In this document: in pieces, positions 12,926-52,956 of the stretch
Layout: every line of letters begins with the position of its first letter
How positions within the stretch are numbered: position 1 is the first letter of the stretch
From: Gonapodya sp. JEL0774
Lineage: Eukaryota
Direction: 5' to 3'
DNA length: 64,000 nt
Assembly (NCBI GenBank): GCA_027604505.1
Contig: JADIIX010000053.1
Coordinates: 62,001-126,000, forward strand
The notes under the pieces: model-generated
Told to the model about the DNA's origin: nothing
Seen by the model: the letters and a program-made list of their open reading frames with translations, nothing else
Databases searched by the model: none
Program-made: the position numbers and the translations under genes

Positions 12926-15900
12926 ATGGACGGAGAAGGGGGGAATGCAGGTGCCCTGAATCAAGACAAGGACAAGAGGAGCATGGACGGTAGCGCAGAT
13001 TCCGTTCCTGGTTCGCATGGATCGCAGGACAAAGGCGATGCAACTCGCGTCGAACTAATATGGCGATCAGAGACACCGAAACAGATGCTACAGATGCCAC
13101 AGCCACCGCAAACACCACCTAGGGTTGGTCCGGGGGAGAAGGTATCTGCATGCACCGAATCCATGGTTTCTGCGCCGCAACTTCCCACAGCGGGATCGCT
13201 CGACGACCTAATGGAAATGCGAAGACTTGCTCCATTGAATGGAGGAATTGGTGGAACCGGTGGTCTCATGGGCTCATTATCGCCGGGTGGTCAATCTTCG
13301 TCCGGTCAGCATTACAACCAGGTGATGCATATCCAGCCACAAAGCCAACAAATTCAGCATGGGCAGCAGATGCAAAGCTTGAGCAACAGGAACAACCTGA
13401 TGCCGCCGCCGCCACCGCACTCGTCCCCTCTTCGCCCCGTACCACAGTACCAACCAGCCCCTGCAAGCTCACAACACTCTCAACGATATTCCCAAAGCCA
13501 GTACCCTCCTTTGCCCCTCTCTTCATCGCGACCCCCAGTGTATCCGTCCAGTGAGCATCTCGCAAATCCACATACGCACCAAACTCACTTCACTCACCCT
13601 CGCTCGCCTTCGGTGGCGCTCGCATCTACAGGAGACCACATCAATGCTTTAACTCCCTTAGGCGCTGCGGCTGGGCCGTCACAAGTCATGTCGACCACCG
13701 CGTCGACTTCTGCTATCACTCCTTTGTCACCTGGGCGCAGTCCATCTGTGAACACAAGCTCACCGACTTACAGTAATGGTAGTAGCATGCCAGTCTCAAA
13801 TGCTGGGGCAGGTGAAAATGGTGTCACGGAGGGGTTGATTGTAGGACAAGCGCGGATGACATCCCCTACCCTGTATCCCTCACTTGTCCCACCTCGACCA
13901 GTTAACGATGCTGGAGATGGTGGGTCAAGTACTCTGGATTATATTGATGGTGGGCCTAGCGCAGACGGAATGGGGAGAGTGTCATCCCCCGCATCCGGAC
14001 AGAATTTCCCAATCCACCCTCCATCCCCATCTCGGAGTCACGTTTTCGGTCAAACCACTCCATCTTCGGCTTCTGCATCCCCCGCTCCTTACCTTTCTTC
14101 GCAAGTCGACCTTTCAACTCACTTGCTTCAATCTCCCAGCCGGGAATCTGGCCTTGCTAAATCAACGACTGCTCGTTCTCCGTATCCACAGTTCAGTTCT
14201 AACAGCCAACAACAACATCTATCTCAGTCACCCTTGCGTCAATCACTCCAGCATCACCCTCCACTGGCTCAAGCACAATCCCCAGGCAAGGGTTCGCTCC
14301 AACAAGTGCATCACTCGTATCAAAGTCACCAGACCCAGCAGATGCATGCATCACAACAGCAGCCATTTTATGCGCAGCAATATATGCAATCACAGCAAGC
14401 TACACAGCCGCACTTGCCAATGCAGTATGCTCAACAACAGCAGTTCTCCCCGCATTACTCATCACAGCACCACCAACAACAAATGCAGTACGCAAATCAT
14501 CAGCAACAGCAAATGCAATACGCGCAGCAACAGCAAATATTCGCAAATCAGTTCTACTACTCCTCAACTACCTCCGGAGCCACTGGAGCAGGTCCGCTGA
14601 TGGTTCCACCGTCTCAAGCGCTGCCCTTGCCGTTAGGAGTAGGAAGTGGGATCCCTGTGGGCGGCTTAAGTGTTCCACCATGCCCCGCCAGCTCGGCTGG
14701 ACCTGGTGGCCAGGAACAAACGAGGCGACCTTCCATCTCTACCGCAATCGTTCCCCAAGGGATCACCGGTCCATCACTTGTGAGTTTTGCTCACGGGACT
14801 GCCTCCGCCGGTGTTACCTCAGTGTCAGGACCCATGAGCTTTAGTGCTATGAACGGCTCCACGCTCGCCGGTGCAGCGCCTCCTGGATACGGACATGTTA
14901 CTGGCCCATCACGGGGATCCAGCGACGGGACCGGTGGCGCTGTTTCCCACGGGCGGACGGGAAGCACTCATGGGAGCATTCGAGAGGTATGTGAGAGCAA
15001 ACGTGGTATGTTGGCTTAGTGACGTCAATGTTCGGACATTTTTCATGAACTCGTTCTGATTCGCTTGAACTCTTTCAGCCCTCCCCGGCCCAATCCCACC
15101 AAACCCCAAACAATCCGCGCCCTCCCACGCCATCAACCTATGCCCACCACACGGTCACGTATTCACCTTCCCGTCCGAACCCCTCTGCCTTTTCATCTTT
15201 TGGCGCGGTCGTTGCTCCTGTAGTTCCGTCTTCTCCTGGTCGTTACCAAAGTCACTCCAGCGAGCAGTTCGGAGCTGGAGTGGGTCCAATGTCGGGTCTA
15301 GTTCCCTTTTCACATCCTTGGATCGGTTCGGCTACCCAACCAAGTGCTCAACCCGTGACATCCCGATCTGGCAGTGGGCTTGATTTTCTAATGAATGCTG
15401 TGGATTTGGATCGGAGTGGTGGTTACTCGTCAGCACCGGGTGTGCGAAAAACGAGTGATGCACAAGCGGGGCAGGATTTGGAAGTAGGAAGCCAGATGGG
15501 AATGGGAATGGAGGACGTGAGTTTTGAATTTGAACACTCAATCGTGTTTCCTCTTTCATGATTTTTTGTCTTGCTTTTCTACCGCCCAGCAACTGCCTCC
15601 TCCACACTTACCTATCCAACCTTTTACATCGTCTTCCTCAAAGGCGCCAGTTCCCCCATCTGTCCCACTGGCAAAGAAGCCGCGTCGACCAAAGGCCGAC
15701 CTCCTTCTTCTCGACGACGTGCACCGAATGGGAGCTTTCAGCTCTGCTACTTTAGGCTCCCGGCGGAGCGGGAGCGGCGGATGGGGATCCGGAAAGTCGG
15801 GGGGAGATTACAGAATTGAAGATGAAGATTGGGAGCAGCCAGGTACAGTGAGCTCGGGTGGGTATGGTGTAGGAGGACAAGGAGGAGCATCTGGGTATGT

Positions 15901-17692
15901 CAATCCTAGTGGCGTTAAGAAGCAATCTGGGGGAAAGCGGCGACGAGTGGGGGGCGGGTCGTTGTGGGCAGAATCGGGGGAGGACGAAGATGGTTTAGGA
16001 GAAGAGATCTACCACCGCCGCAATATCTCTCATTCCAAGGCAAGGGGTGTAACGCCTACCTACTCTGCTTCGGCGTCTTCAACTTCCTCTGGAACTTGGC
16101 AGGGATTCGCCGGTTCGACGCCGAATGGTGCTCAGATATCTTCCGACGTCGCATGGGTTTACGCTCCTGGATCTTCTCAGCCACCGCCTGCAGCGACGTT
16201 ACCGCAAACAGTAGTGGAGAGTTTGGGAGAGTTCGGAGAAGGCGTTGTTGTCGTTCCGGTTGACGGACAGCAAGGCTGCCCAATCTGTGGGGACGTTGGG
16301 GTGGACGAGTGGGTGGGATGTGACGGTTGCGAAAAATGGTATCACTTTGGGTGAGGATTAGGTTGTTATGACTGATTCGGAATTGTCATTGGAGTACTCA
16401 AATTTCCTGTCCCATCCTCCTCCCAGCTGTGTATCCATGACAGCTCGCCTCGCTTCCGCAGCAGACAAGTGGTACTGCCCAGCTTGTCATATCCGCCCAG
16501 AAGGTGGTCTCGTTACGATCTGGAAAGAGGCTTGCTCGAACCCTCAGTGTCCAGCTCAGCACCCCTCCTTGCGTTCCTTGCCACCACTCGAGGATTCTTC
16601 TGTATCAGGAATGGTGGTCGAGGAGACGAGCAAATACTGTTCGGAGAGATGTGGCATAGATGTAGCGAAGAAGGTGCTCGAGGAGGGGAGGAGAACGCTC
16701 GTAAGGGAGGAGGTGAAACGGAGAGTTGCAAAGGAGAAAGAAGATATAGAAGAGGAGTATTTGAGAAAGATAGAAGAGGCGGGCCTTGTGAGGTCAAAAT
16801 TCGCATGGCTGGACGGGAATGGCGTTCCGCTAGAGAGCGAACACGGGGAGGATACTTTCGGGGAGGAGGAAGATGGGAAATGGACAACAAAATTGGACGA
16901 CAAGGATTTGGCAGAACTCAGGGTAATCAAGAACAAGAAGGACACGTGCAAACGTCTCGGATCCGAGGCAATGGAAAGATTTGTGAGTCCCTGAGCGGTT
17001 CCCAGATTGTTGCAGGTGGTGATGGTTCCAGCTCGATATCGACTCACAATCTACGATCGTAGGAACTTTTCGCTGACTACGTTCTGAAAGTCCATGATCA
17101 CAACGAAAATCTTGTAGCCACCAACTTTTACCCAATGTGCGGTTTCGACCAAACCGTTATTTCCATACTAGATGGCACCGTCAGTTTTGCAGATGGTTCA
17201 TACGAAGCACGATTTGTGAATCCAGATGCAGCAAAGTTTGCCGCTACGGCAGCGGTTACTCTAGTGCCTATTGAGGGAGCACACGGGGAGACGAACGAGG
17301 ACGAGGACCAATCCAATGATGCCAATGGACACGTGGAATCTGCACCTACTCCGCTTTTTCCTGTACCATACACAGCATGTCGGTTCCCGCCGACCCGTTG
17401 CCCACGACACGTTGGTTGGGAGACGCTCAAGCGAGAGGAGCTGGAACTAGTTGTGACCAATCTCGCTGACGAGCTCGAAGACCTCAGAGAGGAGGAGACT
17501 GAGGTGTTGGCAAGGATTGGCAAGCGTGCTTGGGATGTTGGTGAATGCAGCGCTGGTATGAGAGATGGGGATGGGTTGAGAAGAGGGGAAATGCGGGAGA
17601 TAGAGGCTGAAGTGGAGGTTGTGAGAGTCGTTACTGTGAAGATTGAGGAAAGGAAAAGGGGAAAGAAGAAGATCGGAGTGGTCCCAAGATGA
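12926..17692 (+). CDS. SPP1: COMPASS subunit Spp1/Cps40 (CFP1-like PHD protein) with long low-complexity N-terminus
   Basis: PHD finger CPICG..WVGCDGCEKWYHF|CV..KWYCPAC, then SKYCSERCG, MCGFD and CPRHVGWE followed by a coiled coil. The link to the Q/P/S-rich 5' exons is inferred from splice sites. Confidence 0.8.
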
Positions 17693-17824: not shown

Positions 17825-18046
17825 TCAGTTGCTTGCAACCCAATTCATGAATGGTGAGCTCTTGGTTCGGGGTCTCCAAATGCGCACGAAAGAGAAGGTA
17901 CCACTGTTCGCTGTTATTGGTTTACGTATCATGTATCCCACATAGTAAAACGTGATACATATGATAGTTCCAAAGATAACATCTCGCGCAACATTCCAAA
18001 CGTCGCAGTGTAGATACAAGCATATTCCGGGGGGAAGAATGCTCAA
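17825..18046 (-). pseudogene. Hydrophobic membrane-protein-like gene fragment
   Basis: ILPPGICLYLHCDVWNVARDVIFGTIICITFYYVGYMIRK has no ATG and abuts the repeat fragment at 18046. Confidence 0.3.
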
Positions 18047-18220
18047 AACGTCTAGATAGATGCAACCTAGATGCTGATTAAGGGTTTCGGTCTAGGATTC
18101 TATTGCGCCAAAACGTCTAGATTTAGGTGGAATTTGGTAGAGACTGCTATAATAGAGTCATTTTGGTATAGATCCTAACAAACCCTAGTTAGATCTTCCC
18201 AGAAAATCTCCGGCCGTGTA
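18046..18220. mobile_element. Terminal fragment of a putative DNA transposon with TAGAT/CTAG subterminal repeats
   Basis: AAAACGTCTAGAT occurs twice (~18046 and ~18110) with several further (C)TAGAT motifs. The stretch ends CCGGCCGTG-TA, i.e. TA|CACGGCCGG on the minus strand. The other end was not found. Confidence 0.4.
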
Positions 18221-18226
18221 GTCAGC

Positions 18227-18345
18227 CTCAAGCTACATCAGGCCAGACCAACCCTGAACCAGGTCCCGACCTGGAGGTTGAAGGCCCAATGTAGAATCCT
18301 CCCCTTGCGAGGATAAAGACCTGTATGACAGCAGGAATCTCAAGC
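18227..18345 (-). ncRNA. Putative omegaRNA (Fanzor guide RNA) scaffold
   Basis: Minus-strand UCCUC-GCAA-GGGGA hairpin (18313-18300) plus a nested 62-nt hairpin at 18294-18233 with 12+7+6 bp stems. Its mismatches are G-U pairs only on the Fanzor strand. The 5' boundary is uncertain. Confidence 0.65.
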
Positions 18346-18487
18346 AATGAGACAATTTGATGGTGAAAGGAGAGTAGGAACAGTGACACTACAGTTTGGA
18401 TCAAAAGGTTTTCGAACCATCAGATAGTTTACTCTCCACCAAAAGATTTATTGGAATTCGCACTCTCTGTTCCTCCCAAAGGTATAC

Positions 18488-18903
18488 TCACAGATGTGCA
18501 GATGTGTTTAGCGGTGGAAGAGTCCAGGGTGAGTGATAACTGATATCACTGGTTGCATTGGTCTCAAAGAACAGGTAAAGGATGTTTTGGGCAGCATTCC
18601 TGTCTCTATTCCAAGTGATTCCACACTGAGCATTGCCACACAATCTGGAGAGAGGTCAAACAATCAATGTCAATTGCTGATGATGGTATCATATTTGGAG
18701 ACTTTGATCCCAAGATCGCGAGAATACACTCACTTGACTCCCCAGTGTCTTTGCTTTGTGCCTTCTTCCTTGGGGAAAAAGGTCTGGCATCTGGAGCATG
18801 TACGAGAGGTACGAAACTCATCAATGAGCACAACTGTAATGCCACACATGGCGAAGAAGCGCTTCATCATTTTATTTGGTGATGATTTATGGCCTCTGCT
18901 AAC
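18488..18903 (-). pseudogene. Fanzor (eukaryotic TnpB) C-terminal part: RuvC-II, zinc finger and RuvC-III in two exons
   Basis: Exon 18903-18734, intron 18733-18645 (GTGAGT..CTCCAG) and exon 18644-18488 give VSRGHKSSPNKMMKRFFAMCGITVVLIDEFRTSRTCSRC..HWGVKLCGNAQCGITWNRDRNAAQNILYLF. RuvC-I was not found. Confidence 0.85.
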
Positions 18904-19494
18904 CTGTAAACCCAAACATTCAAGCTAAACTCGAATATCTCTGCAAAGGTGCTTCACATTGTAAATCTGTTTGAATTTCAACCTAAACTTGTCCCCCACG
19001 ATCTTTACCTCAGGGTTGATGAACCTTCGGCCGGTTTCCGACGTGGACGCAACAGGTTGGAGTTTTCAGAAGGGTATTCTTCCACTGTTATTATAAGGGG
19101 CATCCATGTATCCGCGCATCATTGTCATTCTCGACGCTCCTCATCATACTGGAAATGGGGTGATGTTGGAGGCGGAGACAGGGAGGGGAACAAGGGCGCG
19201 CCCATGGTTTCCATGGTGGAGGTAGAGCCGTAGAGGAGTTGAAGGAGTGAGGGTGGGTGGGACGGTGGTAACGCTGTCTGGGAGGGGCGACCTTGGAACT
19301 TTTCAATTTTCAATTAAATCATTGGTATCGTTTATCAGCATTGTCTTTGACCTTTGACAGAATAAAGTTGACTGTCAGAATTGTCTTTATCTCAACATTA
19401 GACAGATGAAACACTACTATTCCCAGGTTTTTTAGTTGCAGTTGAGAGACTGCATTTTACACGATCAAAGATCTTGTGACCTGATGTGTATATA

Positions 19495-19968
19495 CGACTC
19501 CGGAAAGACCGAGCATCAGCATGAAGAGCTGCAGCCGGTGGCAATAAAAGTGAGTCGAAGTAGCTCTGGCTCGCGCTACAAAAACCGAAGAACTGTGAAA
19601 ATGAAGTTCGGTAGAGTGTGCGAGCTGTTTGCGGTCACCTGCCAGAGTAGGTGGGGGCAAACCTTCAATATTCGAATGCAAAGGAATACCACCATTGCGG
19701 GACTATCAGCGAAAGATGCTCACTGCGAAGTGATGCGCAGTGAGCAAGCTTTGTCGAGAAACGCACAATAACGGAGTTCAGAATCAAGAAAAGCGAGTAT
19801 AAGAGGATCGGAACACCTTATTTGGACAGGATGTGCGACTCCCGAAAGACCGGAAGCCCAGCATTCAAATCAAGAGCCGGTGGCAATTGATAAAGTCCTC
19901 AGTCTCTCTCGCTCACGTTACAAAAGCCGAAACATCAAGGAGATGGTCTGCGGTAGAGTGTGCGAGCT
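19495..19968 (+). repeat. Two diverged ~130 bp direct repeats about 341 bp apart
   Basis: 19495-19626 and 19836-19968 share CGACTCC.GAAAGACCG, AGCCGGTGGCAAT and CGGTAGAGTGTGCGAGCT. Confidence 0.8.
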
Positions 19969-37486: not shown

Positions 37487-40400
37487 CTAAATTGGGCAAC
37501 CCCCACATCTTACTCCATCCACACATCCAATGCACGTCAGAACTTTCACGCCCAATGCCTTCATGGCGGCAACCAGGAGAGACGTAACTCCCTCTCCGAG
37601 CACGAGTCCCGAGGCAACCACAATACCGTCTCCGCCTCGCCAAGATTTTGGTCGTTTGGTACGCCAAAGGTATGCAACGATCCCCCCGGCAACACGCGGA
37701 AGTACGAAATTTGGGGTTATGTACATTCCAATCGCAAAGCCCTTCATTAGAGTGAGCGTACAGATAGAACTGAATGTAGTGGCACGGGATGTCAACAAAA
37801 TGAGTCTCTACTTACCACGCCACTTGGCAGTAACCTCGCAAAGAATATCCTCCAGCTGTTCCAGTCTAGTTTTTCCAGAATACTCAATGCTCGGTCCCAG
37901 AAGGAATCACCTGACTGTCCTCTCGTTGTACTGAGGGGCACAGAAAGTAGCAACTCCAATATTGGAAGGAATGCACCAAACACTCCGCCAATAATACACC
38001 AAGGTACAACGCTCTCGGGCAGCTTCCCGCCATTCACAATTCGCGCCATATCCAGCCATATTGCTGCTGTGGGGGCGCCCAATTCTGGCCCTGGCACTTG
38101 ATACACCTTCGTGTACAGAAGGAACGCACAAACCGTAAGGGGTACTGACGCAACCGATCCGATGAGTTGACCGATAAACTGAGCATAAGGTGAGGCAGAG
38201 AGAAGATGACCTGTTTTCAAGTCCTGAAGTAGGTCCCCGGCTTGTTGAGCGCCAGCTATTTCGCGAAGAAGTTTAACTTGTTGAGGTGGTAGGTACCAGG
38301 CGTAATACAGGATACTCACCTTCTGCAATTGCCCCAGCAACGAGATTAGCCACAATATTGCCTGGTGCAATCGCGGCGAAAACCAACTGGGAAACTTTGC
38401 CGATTCTAACCATCAGAGAGAGTGTGGGAGACTCTGCACTTAACTTTCACGCATCAAAACTCGACCATTCTCCAACTTACCCACTCACGGGATTAACATC
38501 AATCTCGCCTAATGTCCTCACAGCGACGACGGCACATAGGCACCCCACTATGACTGCAACCCCCACCTTCCACCAAGAAACACCAAACATCGGGCCAAGG
38601 ATTGCCGCGCAAAGCACAGTACTCAATGCGAGGCCTCCATATGCGACTAGAGGTGGCACAAGGTGATTACGAGGAGCCGGATCGCGGACGGGAGGACTTC
38701 GTTGAATTATTGCGCGAACGGTCGACAATACAAAGAGATTGAAGGAGGTGAGAGACTCGGCGAGCATTAAGGAAAGCGATACCCATAGGATCCATCTATG
38801 TATCAATAGTTGATTGGTGGCGAAAGCGTTTGAGAGGAAGACGGTCTCACGAACCCTTGAGCACCTTCCTTCCAATCGAATACTCCTTTGCACCAACCCT
38901 GACTCTCAGCGTAAGGTCCAAGGAATCCCCATCCAAAGAGAGCACCAAACAGCATAGAAATCGTGGTGTGTGCCTTCAGGGAACGAAATGGTGGGAAATA
39001 TGGACACAATACACTCTAATCCAGACCTCACACCCATAATCATCCCTTGACCAACATAGCTCAGGGCTTTCAGAGGTAAAAGGAGAGGAAAGCAATCCCA
39101 AAATTTTGAGATACCCGTGTAGCGGTCGCTGATGCTAGCTTCCCCACTCACAAGGTGTCACCCACCATCCCCATTTCGTCGCCATTGAGATCCCAATCCA
39201 TGACATTACCGGTGCATTGTAGAGCACCGGAACGAAATAAGAAGCTATCGTATAGGAGGAGGAGGCGACGAAGGAGTACAGAAGTGGAGATCGCGAAGGC
39301 CCGACAACATTGGGTCCCTCGGAAATGGGGGTGATGGCAGAGGTAGCAGGTTCCTCGGAGATCGTTGAGTGGAGGAGCTTAATTAGCTGGAAATTGACGG
39401 AGGAAGTCACACAATTCGCCGCAGGAACCGCTCAAGCAATCTTAACACACCACTGCAGTTGCCGTTCCACTTGGAAATCGCAGCTTTTCCCTCAGAATTG
39501 TCATACTTCTCATCCCTACAGCGAAGAACACACCGAAAAATGCCTATGTGGGGTAAAAGACAATACGTCAGAGGGACGCAATCCGGACAATACTTTGCAA
39601 CAAAAGTACCAGTGATGAAGTCCACGCAATCATGGCTCCGGGCGTCATTTGGACTGGTCCACCTTCTTCGGGTTCAACCTGAGTTAGAGCGATCACGACC
39701 CCGACAAATCCACCGGCTAGTGGCTGTCAATGGTCAATGTGGACGGTTGATATGTACCAAAATCACCTCCTTCAGTGACACAGTCAAAGATACTACCATT
39801 GTGCCAGTTGCGACCGCTACGGTCTGAACAAGTACGTTTTCCTGCGGTGACCACAAGGAGAATCTGTGCAAGATAATGTAGCCAAGGAGAGCCGATGGCA
39901 AAGACGCCATCTTGGGATGAAGCGATTCCGTCAGAGTTACGATCTGGCATCACAGTCTTTATCACAGCTGCAGTGCCCGCAGTTCCCACTCACCGTAACC
40001 CAACCTGTTTGCAGTCCAAAATACATGTTGGAGAAGACCAAACTTGTACCAATAGCCAACTGGTAAACAGAATGTCACATCTCAGAGATGACTGAGTCGT
40101 ATTAAGTGCCACGATCCATCAACTCACCCCTGCGATAACTGCGCGAGCCGAAACCTGTGACTGCACAGACATGTGCTCAAGATCCCTTTGAATGAGAACC
40201 TCGTCGTCCAGCCCAGCATCAGTAGTTCCTCCTAGTCGCCTTCTCACACGCTTCCTATCCGTTGTTCCTTGGATCAGTGGCCCCTCTTCCGAATCTCTCC
40301 GTTGAACCAGCCCGTCGTCCTCATTATCATTCGCCGTCACAAGAACATCATCGGCGCCCCCTGGCAAATCCGAGTACGCTGAATGAACAGTTGAATGGAA

Positions 40401-47685: not shown

Positions 47686-50600
47686 ATGGCCTTCCAACCC
47701 GGTGACATTAGCGCAGAGTATGCGAAGGTGACTGATGCATCTCTTTGGGGTTCGTTGTGTCTTCCTCTCTGACCGGTCATCACAAACATTCTGTTCAGAG
47801 CGGACGAGCAGGATGCAAAGGATGCAAATCGAATATCGCTATGGGTGCCGTAAGAATTGGGAGACACACTCAGAGTATGGCATGTGAGTCGTTCTTTTTT
47901 TTGTGGGTGCGTGTGGTTCTTGGGGATTGTGAAATGAGACGGGACGAAGGTGTATGGACCAAAGGAGATGGACAAACGACGAAAAGAACCCTCTCCATTG
48001 CAATGTTTACCGAGCAAAAAAGCCGATGCTCACAGTCTTGTTTTTACATCAAAACCGAAACCAAACCCAACCTGTTCCCTCCCGGCCGAATCTTCACTTC
48101 CCCTTTTCCGCTTTATAAAGTTGACGGTATCATGACTGCCTGGTTCCATCCTTCATGCTTTTCGAAGAAAGCGTTTGGCAAGAACACCAAATTGTCTGTA
48201 AGTCTCAAACAACAGTTATGACGTGGTCCCAATCACCTCTCAAGGACCGTTCCAGGAAATTCTTGGTGTCCCTTCTTTGCGTTGGGAAGATCAACAGAGT
48301 CTTGGTAAAATTTTCGGTGACGGGGGTGGTGGTGGCGGTGGTGCCCGGAAGCCGACTGGTGGTTCCAGTGGCTCAGGGCGTGCACAAGACGTGGAAGAAT
48401 CAAACTCGGGTGAGTTGTTGCTGCTCCAATTTGGGAATGCGATGAGTGCGAAGAGCATTCTGACCACGCAAATGCAGCCCTTAACATTGCTTATGCTCCC
48501 ACTTCTCGATCAACCTGTCACGGATGCGAGAGCAAAATCGAAAAGGGGGAACTAAGGATGGCGTTTAAAGAAAGCAAAGGAGACGATGCACGGCCGTGGT
48601 TGGAAGTGGACAGGTGGTGTAAGTTTTGCTATTGCGTTTGGCTTTCCTTGTTGGATGCGATGGCGAACCGAGAGGGACCTTGAAACCCACGGCCCACTCA
48701 CATCTCTCAAACTTTTTTTTTTTTGTGTAATTCACCAATCCCACTTCGCGCGCTGCACTGCTCTGATTTCGTTAGATCATCCTCCTTGTTTCTACACACA
48801 CGCCCTGGTCGCAACACCTTCACCGTGTCCAGTATCTGACGTGAAGGATGTCAAGATATTCAGCGGTTGGAAGAGCATCGGTGGGTTTTAAGGGATGTTG
48901 GTGGTGTTGGGGGTCACTCGCAAGGGACCGAATTGGTGATTCACTTCATTGCGTTCTCGCCAGCCAAACCTCATCTCGACTATGCGACCGCGTGTTTGAC
49001 TGGCACCCCGCCAGCTGGTCCTGTTCCATCAAATTTGTCTGGGGACAATGTAGGACCGAAGAAGAAAAAGGCAAAGAAATCAATGAGAGGGAGTGCCGAG
49101 GAGATGGACGACGAAGAGGCTGAGGTGGGGACTGAGGAGGAGTACGCACTTCCGGAACGCAAAACCAAAGCAAGGGGCAGAGCCGCCCTGGAGGAAGGTG
49201 AGAGGAAGAGGAAGCGGGGAAAACCGCAGACGAACGAGGTTCAAGAAGATCAAGGGGATGTCAGTATGGACGAGACATATGTAGCGAGACCAACGAGAAG
49301 AGCAAAAAACGCCGACAGCCGAATGAAACGAGACGTGGTAAAGAAGAGAGACGGGGATGAGGAAGAAGAGTCCAGAACGGAGACTAAAAGCGATCCCCAG
49401 CCTCCTCGTCGGCGAAAGAGGGGAGTGACCAAGGACGGGCATTCGACGGTTAGTTATTCGACGGTTAGTTTGCCGAGCGATGAAGCGCCACATGCGGCTT
49501 CAAAGGACGATGTGCAATTGCCAGGACGGCGTAAGAAGGCGAAACGGGTTGAGGAGGATTTGGACGCCAAGGACAACATCGAGATGGAAGACGACGAAGC
49601 TGACAAACCTAAGAGGGGAAGAGGAGGGCCCAGACTCAAGAAGGAGACTCTTCACCACGAGTTGGGTGCGGAAGACATGAAAGAGTCCAAGAAGAGGAAG
49701 CTGAAAGAGCCTTCGAATGGCAAAGGCAAACTCAAAGCCGAAGAAGATGCAGAGGTAGCGAAAGAAGAGCAACAGGACCAAGGGCTTATGGATCCGGCAC
49801 GCATACAAGCAGAGGCGCTGTGGCAGGTGAAAGTGAGTTCTCGAAAGGTATGAGGCCCACCCGAAACAGTGATTCCATGCACTTCAACTGGTAGGACAAG
49901 CTCTCCTCCTTCTCACTCGGTGGCCGAGGCACTGTCTTACGCTGCCTGAATGCGCTGGGGTTTTCGATGCCCACACCGACGGAAACTGCTGCCAAAACCC
50001 TATTCGCAGATGTCCTCACGTTCGGGCTTTCTGGGCCATGCCCTGAGTGCCGTTCATCTTTCCTTGCTCCCAACGAAAAGGGTACAGGATACCGTTGTCC
50101 CAAGATCCACGATTGGGGCGCGTGCCCCTTCGAGACGACGCACCCGGTGTTTGATAAGAAGGGGACAGAGACGAGAATTGGGAGCGATTTGACGGCAATT
50201 TTGGGCGAAGAATTAGTGGAGAAGATTCTGGAGGTGGCGAGGGGAGTAGGCGAAGTGACGAGGGTTTTGCAATCAGAGGTACGTCTTTGGCGCCTGTCTG
50301 AGTCCATCAAGGATTTACATTTTGCGCCATCCTACAGCCCAAGCGTGTCAAGACAGTCGCTTCAAGTACCTCCATTTCTTCACCCACTGCTTTCGTCCCC
50401 CGGTTTGGTGCCACCACTGGTGAACCTTTCCGTGGTATGACATTTGTGTTGGCAGGTGGTTTTTCCCGTCCACATGGCGAAATCGCGTCAAGGATAAAAG
50501 TCGCAGGGGGGATCGTCGACACAAACGTGACGGAAGGAACGACTTTGGTTGTGAGCTCCAGAGTAGAGTGCAATAAGGATGAATCGGCGACAACTGCCAA

Positions 50601-52956
50601 GATTTTGAGGACAAAAGAACTGGGGATAGAGGTGGTTGGAGAGGTGGGTGTTTGTGAGGAATCTAGCTCTTGCAGCGTGGGCTTGGCTTGGCCATCATCT
50701 GAGCTCTGGTGCATGCACTTGAACGATTTATTTCTACAGAATTTCATTGATGAGTGTATTGGCAAGAAGCAATTGTTGGATTGGCGGATCGATGGATGGC
50801 GGATCTGGGGTGGGGACGAAGATTCGGTTAGAAAACGCAAGGAGAGGAAAGAAAAGGAGGTTCGTGATAACTACTGATAATCGCTTTCAGAAGTGACTCA
50901 TGAGTGAATACTTCGCAGGAGTTTCGTCCCAAAAAATTACAAGCGATGACAGTCAAGAACTCGACTGCGGTCGACCCAAAAAGTGCTTATACTGCGACGC
51001 ATCATGTATACCGAGTGAGGAATATCTAGGATGCAATGTCGAGTTCTTGATTGACTCTTTCCACCGTTCAATGTTCGAACATTAGGACAAGCAAAACGTC
51101 CCATGGACTGTACAAATGGTTCGTGTCGACGCCGCTACGGGTCGGAATAGCTACTACGTACTTCAAATTCTCGAGAGTGACGGAGGAGGAAGAGGTTACG
51201 TATTTCTCAAGAGCTGGGGTCGGGTTGGAACAAACATAGGGCAGATCGAAGAGGACACTTGTGACTTGGAGTGGGCAAAGTCAACTTTTGCAGTCAACTT
51301 TGCCGAGAAAAGTGGAAACAAGTGGTTGTTGAAACCTTATGAGGCCATTGCAGTGAGTATTTAATTCAAGGTTTGTGTCCCAGTTCACCTGCGTTGTTAA
51401 TTTTTCACTGCAGAATCGGTACACCGTGGTCGATGTGGACTATGGTGGCGAGAAAGCGGAGACTGTGTCGACGAAGATCACCTCTGATTTGGTGGATTCC
51501 TCGAGTCTCGCGAAGCCTGTTGCAGAGCTCGTTGCCTTGCTTTTCGATATGGAGAGGATGAAACAGACGATGCTCTCATTCGAAATTGACCTTAGCAAGA
51601 TGCCGCTAGGCAAGTTCCGCTGAATACGTGCGGTTGGAGGCCCGACAACCTCGATAACCGTGAATTTCATGATTGCAGGAAAACTGTCCAAAGCAGCCAT
51701 AAGTCGCGCGTATACAATTCTCGCCGAAGCTCAGGAGCTAGTCAACCAACGTACACATAACTCCGAAACCCCGGGACTCAAATCCGGTTTTGCACGTGTT
51801 TCCAACGTTTTCTACTCAACAATCCCACATGATTTCGGAAGGAACTCACCACCACTTCTAGATGACGAGGATCTGATTCAGAGCAAATTGAGCATGCTTG
51901 ACACCCTTCGGGATATAGAAGTTTTCAACTCGATCATTGCTGAAGAAACTGACGAGAAGAAGGCAGAGAACGTTGTTGATCAGCACTACAAGAAACTAAA
52001 GTGTTCAATTGAGGTCGTCGATAACGATTCGGTTTGTTCTTCATGTTTTGAAGAAAGGACGTACTTGCAAAAAATAATCTTCTGGGAACTCCAGGTTGAG
52101 TTTTCGCGAATCAAGAAACAACTTGACAGCACGCACGCTCCGACGCATTCGCAATACTCATTGGAGATCGAGCATGTGTTTAGAGTTTCGAGGGATCAAG
52201 ATGAAGAAAGGTTTTCATCATGGAAGAACAATAAGAACAGGAGTGAGCGTTTGCACAACACCGAGACGCGACATGACGAGTCTAATTGCGCTCCTTAGTG
52301 CTGTTATGGCATGGCTCCAGGCTTTCGAACTGGGTGGGAATCCTCAGCCAAGGTTTACGTATCGCCCCACCGGAAGCTCCTGTTACCGGCTACATGTTCG
52401 GGAAAGCGTTGTATTTTGCGGACATGGTATCTAAGTCTGCGAACGTGAGTTGGACCTGGGTTCTGCCTTTATTTTATTCACTATCGTTACTGCGGTTTCA
52501 TTGGCCCGAAGTACTGCTTTGCAACGCCCACAAATCCTTATGGTTTGCTGACATTGTGTGAAGTGGCGCTGGGTGATATGTAAGTCCGTTTCGTTTCTTA
52601 AAGCAGACGAGTCTCCCACTAATACTTGCATGCGGTGCAGGTACGAGTTGACTGCGGCGCAGATGATTACAAAACTGCCCCCTGGGAAGGAGAGCACAAA
52701 AGGTTGTGGCAAAACCGGTCCGTCTTCTTTCGACTTGGAAGATGGATTGCGCCGCCCTTTAGGCCCTCCCACTGGCCAAAACATACCGGTGAGTAGTGTT
52801 CGACTGAATCCCTGCAGTAAACTGAATTGCTTTTGGTAGGGGACGAAAAGAACGGACTTACTTTACAATGAATATATGGTATATTCTGAAAGCCAACAAC
52901 GTATGCGGTACCTCGTCAAAGTCAAGTTTCATTTCGGTCGTTCGGGACGGTTTTAG
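47686..52956 (+). CDS. PARP1: Poly(ADP-ribose) polymerase 1 (Zn1-Zn2-PADR1/Zn3-BRCT-WGR-regulatory-catalytic)
   Basis: [97 protein letters not shown] and YNEYMVY. Confidence 0.93.

Follow-up and report, generated by a model that had tools for sequence, protein, structure and literature searches.

A dead, internally deleted Fanzor element with asymmetric inverted repeats and a predicted omegaRNA hairpin in Gonapodya

Results

We analysed a 64-kb stretch of the Gonapodya sp. JEL0774 genome (hereafter the window), the gene content of which is intron-rich and fungus-like. Its plus strand carries a gene at 15524-17692 with weak Pfam matches to a PHD finger and a CpG-binding C-terminal domain, which we take to be, most likely, an SPP1/CXXC1-type COMPASS subunit, and an intron-split PARP gene at 47736-52295 (zinc finger, PADR1, BRCT, regulatory and catalytic domains) that is followed on the opposite strand by a SET-domain gene. 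Between these genes, the minus strand contains the 3′ part of a Fanzor gene. One exon (18734-19065) encodes the RuvC-II glutamate (codon at 18819) and the first half of a zinc finger; a predicted 89-nt GT-AG intron (18645-18733) lies in phase between the two halves of the finger; and the last exon (18488-18644) encodes the second half, the RuvC-III RD motif (18607) and the stop codon (18490-18488). The region 18915-18733 matches Pfam family PF07282 above the family's own cut-off (27.4 bits against 26.3), and 18655-18491 gives a weak match. Both halves of the [TS]-[TS]-x-x-C4 zinc finger that precedes the RD motif were thus found, divided by the in-phase intron. The RuvC-II glutamate is present in P0001 six residues ahead of the zinc finger, which is the Fanzor-type site (PMC13565253), and the DEFRTS block of columns around it is invariant in our alignments.

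The remainder of the gene is missing. A profile built from 95 full-length relatives matches at its positions 533-617 of 655 and nowhere else in the window, so that profile position 386 and the whole of 1-532 are without a match in the 64 kb. Likewise, neither the RuvC-I aspartate (DPG, expected 125-275 residues upstream) nor the WED and REC domains gave a profile match anywhere in the window, and sequence and profile comparisons found no Fanzor similarity upstream of about 19075. The Fanzor exon also contains an in-frame stop (18927-18925), and its upstream part is decayed. A possible second intron of 105 nt at 19008-18904 (minus strand; GTAAAG donor, acceptor assigned by reading) would, if removed, delete this stop; the same segment also resembles decayed coding sequence. 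We read the absence of the first RuvC motif as a deletion, which makes this a dead member of the Fanzor family. The locus is therefore a broken, internally deleted, dead Fanzor copy with a C-terminal gene remnant inside, known from one copy.

Among solved structures, the remnant is most similar to PpFz1 (E 0.006) and SpuFz1 (E 0.22), a distant and weakly scoring likeness over 61 amino acids. These two Fanzor1 structures rank above the Fanzor2-type chain, an order that rests on weak scores and on about 90 residues of remnant in all. The remnant had a single match among 1.84 billion protein representatives (E 6e-4, 47% over 43 residues), and two further protein searches with it returned none. 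A further protein search gave 1746 matches, of which the 120 matches listed follow the viral rows of the query, and none of the protein matches brings eukaryotic DNA context. The atlas features comprised eukaryotic clusters and one PF07282 set. Viral scans by protein retrieved no relative of P0001 or P0002. Separately, viral contigs contain open Fanzor1-like frames of 630-650 amino acids (L007:1357-3294, L008:1351-3309 and L010:3-1898).

Downstream of the gene remnant, the minus strand is predicted to form two stem-loops. A short one (18296-18314) of 6-7 bp, with pair probabilities of 0.6-0.8, sits one base ahead of a long one (18233-18294) with 25 pairs, including 4 G-U pairs. The long hairpin ranks first among about 914 independent 70-nt windows of the minus strand after correction for composition, and a shuffle test of the hairpin gave z -4.9 (0 of 200 shuffles as good). 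It folds better on the minus strand, which is the gene strand (-34.5 kcal/mol), than on the plus strand (-25.8 kcal/mol), owing to the four G-U pairs in the stem. A broader fold test over 321 nt was weak (z -1.70), and a 60-nt scan in steps of 15, in which no window spanned the whole stem, missed the hairpin (best value for the region, -1.4). Given how exceptional the hairpin is, we place the right end at or past 18233: the element very likely reaches at least that position, and a guide would then start within a few bases of the TTGAG motif that begins 2 nt past the hairpin base (18227-18231), a candidate right junction.

As a fold prediction from one sequence, this layout matches the two-stem omegaRNA of SpuFz1 and PpFz1, with the short stem as predicted SL1 and the long stem as predicted SL2 and terminal hairpin. 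A 7-bp SL1 occurs in three Fanzor1 omegaRNAs, and a single SL2 precedes the guide in SpuFz1 and PpFz1 (Xu et al., PMC11423790). The predicted scaffold (18314-18227) is 88 nt long; that of SpuFz1 is 75 nt (PMC10432273). If the element ends at 18227, the flank at 18212-18226 would be the source of the guide; a second site for this candidate guide does not exist above 12/15 within the window. Rfam gave no match to the predicted omegaRNA region. A pseudoknot between the bulge of the long stem and the terminal bases was rejected on geometry, as a 2-nt linker would be unable to span 18 pairs. A short right end near 18287, according to the 20-30-nt rule for Helitron2, was also rejected, because it would cut the long stem.

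Several features lie around and beyond this end. The minus strand at 18227-18212 contains a further 5-bp stem (pair probability about 0.63), followed by ATTTT at 18207-18203; ATTTT is the 3′ end of FoHeli1/2 and may mark an alternative right end 24 nt further out. Just past the right end, an AT-rich tract (18040-18210) contains 12 copies of TAGA (0.69 expected) and 5 of CTAG (0.23 expected), counts that exceed those in all of 1120 tiled windows, together with a 14-nt direct repeat without mismatches (18044 and 18109); this tract is possibly the end of another repeat element. The second-ranked fold in the window (51325-51256, minus strand) is a near-perfect 13-bp inverted repeat in the PARP gene region, and the hairpin at 19495-19426 comes 13th among minus-strand folds. 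Beside the left end, a gene-like region contains an internal duplication (19495-19627 against 19836-19968, 71% identity).

The original prediction held that the element has asymmetric inverted repeats at its ends. We recovered the 16/20 inverted match between minus-strand 19391-19372 and plus-strand 18312-18331, which contains exact blocks of 9 nt and 6 nt. The right copy is indeed subterminal and directly precedes the hairpins, the arm overlapping the first stem by 3 nt. A direct second copy of the motif (19332-19351, 15/20) follows the left arm (19372-19391), so that the layout is two direct copies at the left and one inverted copy at the right (18312-18331, minus-strand feature). This second copy contains the direct repeat described earlier as 14 nt long (19335-19348 and 19375-19388); its position is correct and its match is 13/14, with one mismatch that had gone unmentioned. 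The segment between the two left copies (19355-19371) has two pairing options, a 6-bp pairing with the arm's end and an 8/9 pairing with 19400-19392, and contributes to a weak 5′ hairpin: the TGACAG/CTGTCA stem (19377-19372 with 19360-19355) does form in a DNA fold, at a stability no greater than that of shuffled sequences (z +0.32 and -0.40 for DNA, +0.23 for RNA). We regard the 20-nt end motif as the likely binding site of a transposase.

Taken alone, the 16/20 inverted repeat is weak evidence. Random pairs reached this match in 3 of 400 trials for segments of 100×300 nt, in 16 of 400 for 300×300 nt and in 28 of 40 for 1800×1800 nt, and a 27-nt inverted pair of 74% identity, without evident meaning, outranks it in the region. 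It gains weight through its overlap with the left direct repeat. The window has only 6 places with a 13/14 direct repeat at short range (within 60 nt). Of 6000 trials, 165 produced the inverted match taken alone and 1 produced an inverted arm that overlapped a direct repeat of this kind. Three different hexamers of the motif also each occur twice in 91 nt (0.03-0.06 expected), in a test that is partly circular. A third motif-like site (39944-39963, 15/20) was rejected, as it lies near an OPT transporter gene and is accompanied by neither a Fanzor match nor a hairpin.

These numbers bear on the question of whether the ends are real at all. As no Fanzor similarity extends upstream of about 19075, the motif alone ties 19075-19395 to the element, and conceivably only the gene remnant and the omegaRNA hairpin are genuine, with the inverted repeat and TTGAG arising by chance or forming part of the neighbouring gene's promoter; the actual left end would then be lost or lie elsewhere. 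The frequency of 16/20 inverted matches in regions of this size (28/40) and the choice of boundaries after the sequence had been viewed would fit such an account. We consider it unlikely in view of the joint occurrence of inverted and direct repeats (1/6000), the doubling of the motif hexamers in 91 nt (partly circular as that test is) and the exact coincidence of the right arm's end with the first stem. Nor are the arms likely to be ordinary terminal inverted repeats (TIRs). They enclose the entire gene remnant, as a TIR pair delimiting an element at 19391-18312 with the hairpins as flanking DNA should; yet no duplication of at least 4 nt was found outside this pair, and none of 2-3 nt by reading, and the best hairpin of the window would then lie 18 nt outside the element by chance, leaving the Fanzor without a scaffold. 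An element of that kind is very improbable.

A further possibility is a DDE carrier, moving by cut and paste, in which the binding repeats are subterminal and the terminal repeats are short or have decayed; DDE transposons carry most Fanzor1 (Bao and Jurka table S1; PMC13565253). For example, an element with G...C termini could be flanked by a 4-bp TTGA duplication, which lies exactly around 19391-18232, or its left end could lie beyond 19411. Set against this, no terminal inverted repeat better than 9/14 was found for any boundary pair tested, and the TTGA duplication needs one extra base to match by chance. We therefore judge this carrier to be decidedly unlikely.

Searches with the end motif and related patterns brought no relatives, and the matches that they gave were attributable to chance. 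A metagenome scan with the left-end pattern found six loci, which showed neither a Fanzor match nor any similarity outside the pattern itself; viral pattern scans gave 0, 9 and 0 loci, the nine being without Fanzor; and prokaryote genomes gave one locus without a TnpB or Fanzor match. Plasmid and phage collections gave no match. Conversely, in nine viral Fanzor1 loci, which come from five distinct contigs, matches to the end motif do not exceed 13/20. A motif search in the element file of Bao and Jurka yielded no match at an element end, and a peptide search of Data S1 of Jiang et al. (PMC10530073), in which the sequence text searched extends to 400 characters per entry, yielded no close relative. 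Within the window, no long duplication or inversion links the flanks of the element, the best score being reached by 33.5% of random pairs. Our literature search found no publication on this element and none combining Fanzor, Chytridiomycota and transposable elements; Repbase, the main supplement of Jiang et al. and the supplements of Saito lay beyond its scope and could hold the family.

TTGAG occurs on the minus strand at 19395-19391, where its final G doubles as the first base of the inverted arm, and at 18231-18227, both as originally reported. The suggestion that it serves as a TAM (target-adjacent motif) or TSD (target-site duplication) found no support in that form. A third, internal copy lies at 18339-18343; for boundary pairs close by, TCTAA and GAGAT would serve as 5-nt duplications just as well; and the left-end repeat continues outwards past the motif. 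The resemblance to the TTGAT of ISDra2 carries no weight, because measured Fanzor1 TAMs differ among themselves (CATA, TTAA(N) and ATN; including PMC11423790). Moreover, as a TAM is a motif of the left flank, the right-end copy does not count as evidence for one.

The left border itself is ambiguous. The left end can be read as two tandem units (19411-19372 and 19366-19332), which agree at 26 of 35 positions once a single 5-nt gap is allowed; this gap coincides with the left TTGAG (19391-19395). Outside the proposed border, 19396-19411 resembles the inner segment 19366-19351 at 12/16 (P about 0.0055 against AT-rich random flanks), and 19400-19392 pairs with 19371-19363 at 8/9 (P 0.0076); both tests are post hoc and share bases. 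Because the tandem units continue past TTGAG, the left end may lie anywhere from 19390 to 19411 or beyond, and to judge from this repetition the border may be 16 nt or more further out than proposed.

With these borders in mind, we weighed an element bounded by the TTGAG repeat (19390-18232 plus one copy). The motif would here be either a 5-bp target duplication or a fixed site for recombination or nicking. Of its two copies, the left would be target sequence and form part of the TAM, and the right would be incorporated in the omegaRNA scaffold; the 20-nt motifs would be subterminal sites at which the enzyme binds. Placement argues for this arrangement: the right TTGAG starts 2 nt after the hairpin and the left abuts the arm, a coincidence with a chance of 0.4% (2×2 offsets) to 6% (5×15 offsets). 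Fanzor1 scaffolds do include the TSD (PMC10711439). There are also precedents in MCi-5, which lacks TIRs and has a 6-nt repeat at each end, and MCi-2, with a Crypton fragment (PMC3627910), in Cryptons with terminal repeats of 4-6 nt (PMC3212892) and in Replitrons with short direct repeats and a right-end hairpin (PMC10288648). TTGAG fits the 4-6-nt terminal repeat of Cryptons in one copy with a disputed left border, and the combination of short direct repeats and right-end hairpin fits the Replitron layout, again in one copy. However, an unanchored shared 5-mer has a 30% chance, the third TTGAG and the rival 5-mers count against the motif, and, outside the left copy, the sequence resembles the inner repeat at 12/16 and can form 8/9 pairs around the arm. 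Furthermore, the text of PMC3212892 available to us describes no asymmetric inverted arms in Cryptons, and the main text of the Replitron paper outside its references makes no mention of fungi (PMC10288648). Overall, a TTGAG-bounded element is the leading alternative to a Helitron2-like carrier, and we hold it to be somewhat unlikely.

A more radical form of this idea treats TTGAG as a fixed nicking site at both junctions and also as the TAM, in a fungal Fanzor1 family on a single-strand (HUH) carrier of a kind not yet linked to Fanzor. The ends of IS200/IS605 elements pick their target by base pairing. By analogy, TTGAG would be chosen by pairing with complementary bases just inside the left end (8/9), and the whole omegaRNA scaffold would have been inserted between the right binding site and the terminus. 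We give this possibility very little credence.

The best single guess for the carrier is Helitron2, a type to which the original prediction had linked asymmetric inverted repeats with hairpins. Several features fit. The arms are asymmetric and a hairpin immediately follows the right one, as in Helitron2/HLE2 elements. A short inverted repeat is nested in the left arm, 11 nt on, within the 3-22 nt described for DINE-1 (PMC4067079); repeated left termini occur in fungal Helitron2 elements (PMC5148889); and a T/T register, that is, a border after the first T of each TTGAG, is available at both ends. Fanzor1 in Helitron2 has a precedent in CRe-1/2/3 (PMC3627910), and the lack of a terminal inverted repeat above 9/14 fits as well. 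The arm-to-end distance is the part of the assignment that did not stand: if the long hairpin belongs to the element, the right arm is separated by 79 nt from the base of that hairpin and by 85 nt from position 18227, compared with 20-30 nt (PMC3627910), 38-51 nt (PMC5148889) and 38-60 nt (PMC4067079) in described elements. The 20-nt arms are 80% matched and their longest perfect inverted block is 9 nt, which falls below the 11-nt block used by HELIANO (PMC11417382) and within Bao and Jurka's range for asymmetric inverted repeats (8-15 (11-17) nt). Helitron2 elements have a left arm 0-4 nt from a 5′ T terminus, which fits our element if the end is at 19394-19395; a left end at or beyond 19411 would put the arm 20 nt inside. 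They also have a 5′ hairpin that uses part of the left arm; the corresponding 6-bp stem here does not exceed shuffled sequences in stability. A TTGAG repeat is not predicted by Helitron2, and no site fitting a Helitron1 end (CTRR then T) was found by reading, so that type was rejected.

Helitron2 and TTGAG as the TAM are mutually exclusive. Cutting between two Ts leaves four of the five TTGAG bases inside the element; a border that excludes all five would give an element beginning with A, without the 5′ T of a Helitron2 start. No transposase family was found in 90 open frames of the window, RepHel, tyrosine recombinase and Rep all being missing; the scan covered 9 frames plus 81 of 94 stop-to-stop frames of at least 125 amino acids (5 of the other 13 being already among the 9), leaving 8 overlapping frames aside, and short exons would escape it.

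Discussion

Taken together, our data support a Fanzor element whose inverted repeats are asymmetric and non-terminal, with hairpins immediately past the right arm and a right end near 18227-18232. It is a new dead Fanzor element of a known type, with a well-supported right end, an ambiguous left end and a putative junction motif. Our best, if tentative, reading is a dead non-autonomous Fanzor1 element riding a Helitron2-like carrier. We do not file it as a member of that group: its right end works like a Helitron2 end with a whole omegaRNA between arm and terminus.

The closest parallels are CRe-1, CRe-2 and CRe-3 of Chlamydomonas reinhardtii, non-autonomous Helitron2 elements with an intron-bearing Fanzor1, no transposase and no TIRs in their published description, asymmetric inverted repeats, a hairpin after the right arm and internal deletions that leave the right end intact (PMC3627910). 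The CRe right arm is 20-30 nt from the end and followed by one small hairpin, and about 34 nt from it in CRe-1 as we counted from the supplement text; here the distance is at least 79 nt and there are two stems. CRe arms are short and near perfect, whereas ours match at 16/20, and CRe elements insert after TTTT with variable TSDs (PMC3627910). By eye, no sequence likeness was found between our element and CRe.

SpuFz1 (Spu-1 of Spizellomyces punctatus) and PpFz1 (Parasitella parasitica) are fungal Fanzor1 proteins, as ours probably is (PMC10432273, PMC11423790); their scaffolds have a short first stem and one further stem and take the guide from the flank (PMC11423790). At their loci, partial and gene-less copies retain the scaffold (PMC10432273), as the remnant here is predicted to do. 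Spu-1, however, has true TIRs of 30-33 nt, TA duplications and the TAM CATA (PMC10432273). More generally, TIRs with a flanking target duplication, as in Spu-1, Mariner and MuDR types, were not found in our element, where the best terminal match is 9/14.

FoHeli1/2 of Fusarium oxysporum and the DINE-1/HINE Helentrons share the asymmetric arms and the inverted repeat nested at the left (PMC5148889, PMC4067079), and some of their copies have repeated left termini, as here, in a host that for FoHeli is a fungus (PMC5148889). They differ in that the available text of these papers describes no Fanzor, the right arm is 38-60 nt from the end, the elements end in ATTTT or T-runs, and their boundaries were proven by empty sites, whereas ours are read from one copy (PMC5148889, PMC4067079). 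MCi-5 and MCi-2 of Mucor circinelloides, Cryptons and Replitrons resemble our element in having short direct repeats at the ends and no TIRs, and the MCi elements place Fanzor1 in an early-diverging fungus (PMC3627910). Their repeats are 6 nt and AT-rich in MCi-5 and 11-12 nt in MCi-2, and asymmetric inverted arms do not feature in the description of them available to us (PMC3627910).

In a Helitron2-like model, the non-autonomous element would be moved in trans by an enzyme that binds the 20-nt motif: a RepHel would nick at the T/T junction and copy a single strand until halted by the right-end hairpin. With the border after the first T of each TTGAG, the motif would be neither TSD nor TAM, and the TAM would consist of T-rich bases to the left of the junction. 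In an active family, a transcript running past the right end would give rise to the two-stem scaffold followed by a guide of about 15 nt taken from the flank. Fanzor would then cut alleles that lack the element and so favour its restoration or spread; cutting of empty alleles has been shown for TnpB and proposed for Fanzor (PMC13565253). Our copy cannot make the nuclease and could still supply guide RNA to intact relatives, as has been proposed for 'ghost' loci.

As it stands, the locus is one further dead Fanzor element, probably of the Fanzor1 type, from a fungus and without a near relative among the collections that we searched, and it supplies a candidate omegaRNA scaffold and an end motif for retrieving its family. 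The sole worked Fanzor-Helitron2 case that we found in the literature is algal (PMC3627910). Should the family prove to have fixed TTGAG junctions or a RepHel partner, the significance would be greater, because how Fanzor1 TAMs and scaffolds adapt to TIR-less carriers is open (PMC13565253). And if the improbable HUH carrier were real, the element would represent a eukaryotic re-creation of the IS605 coupling of target motif and TAM.
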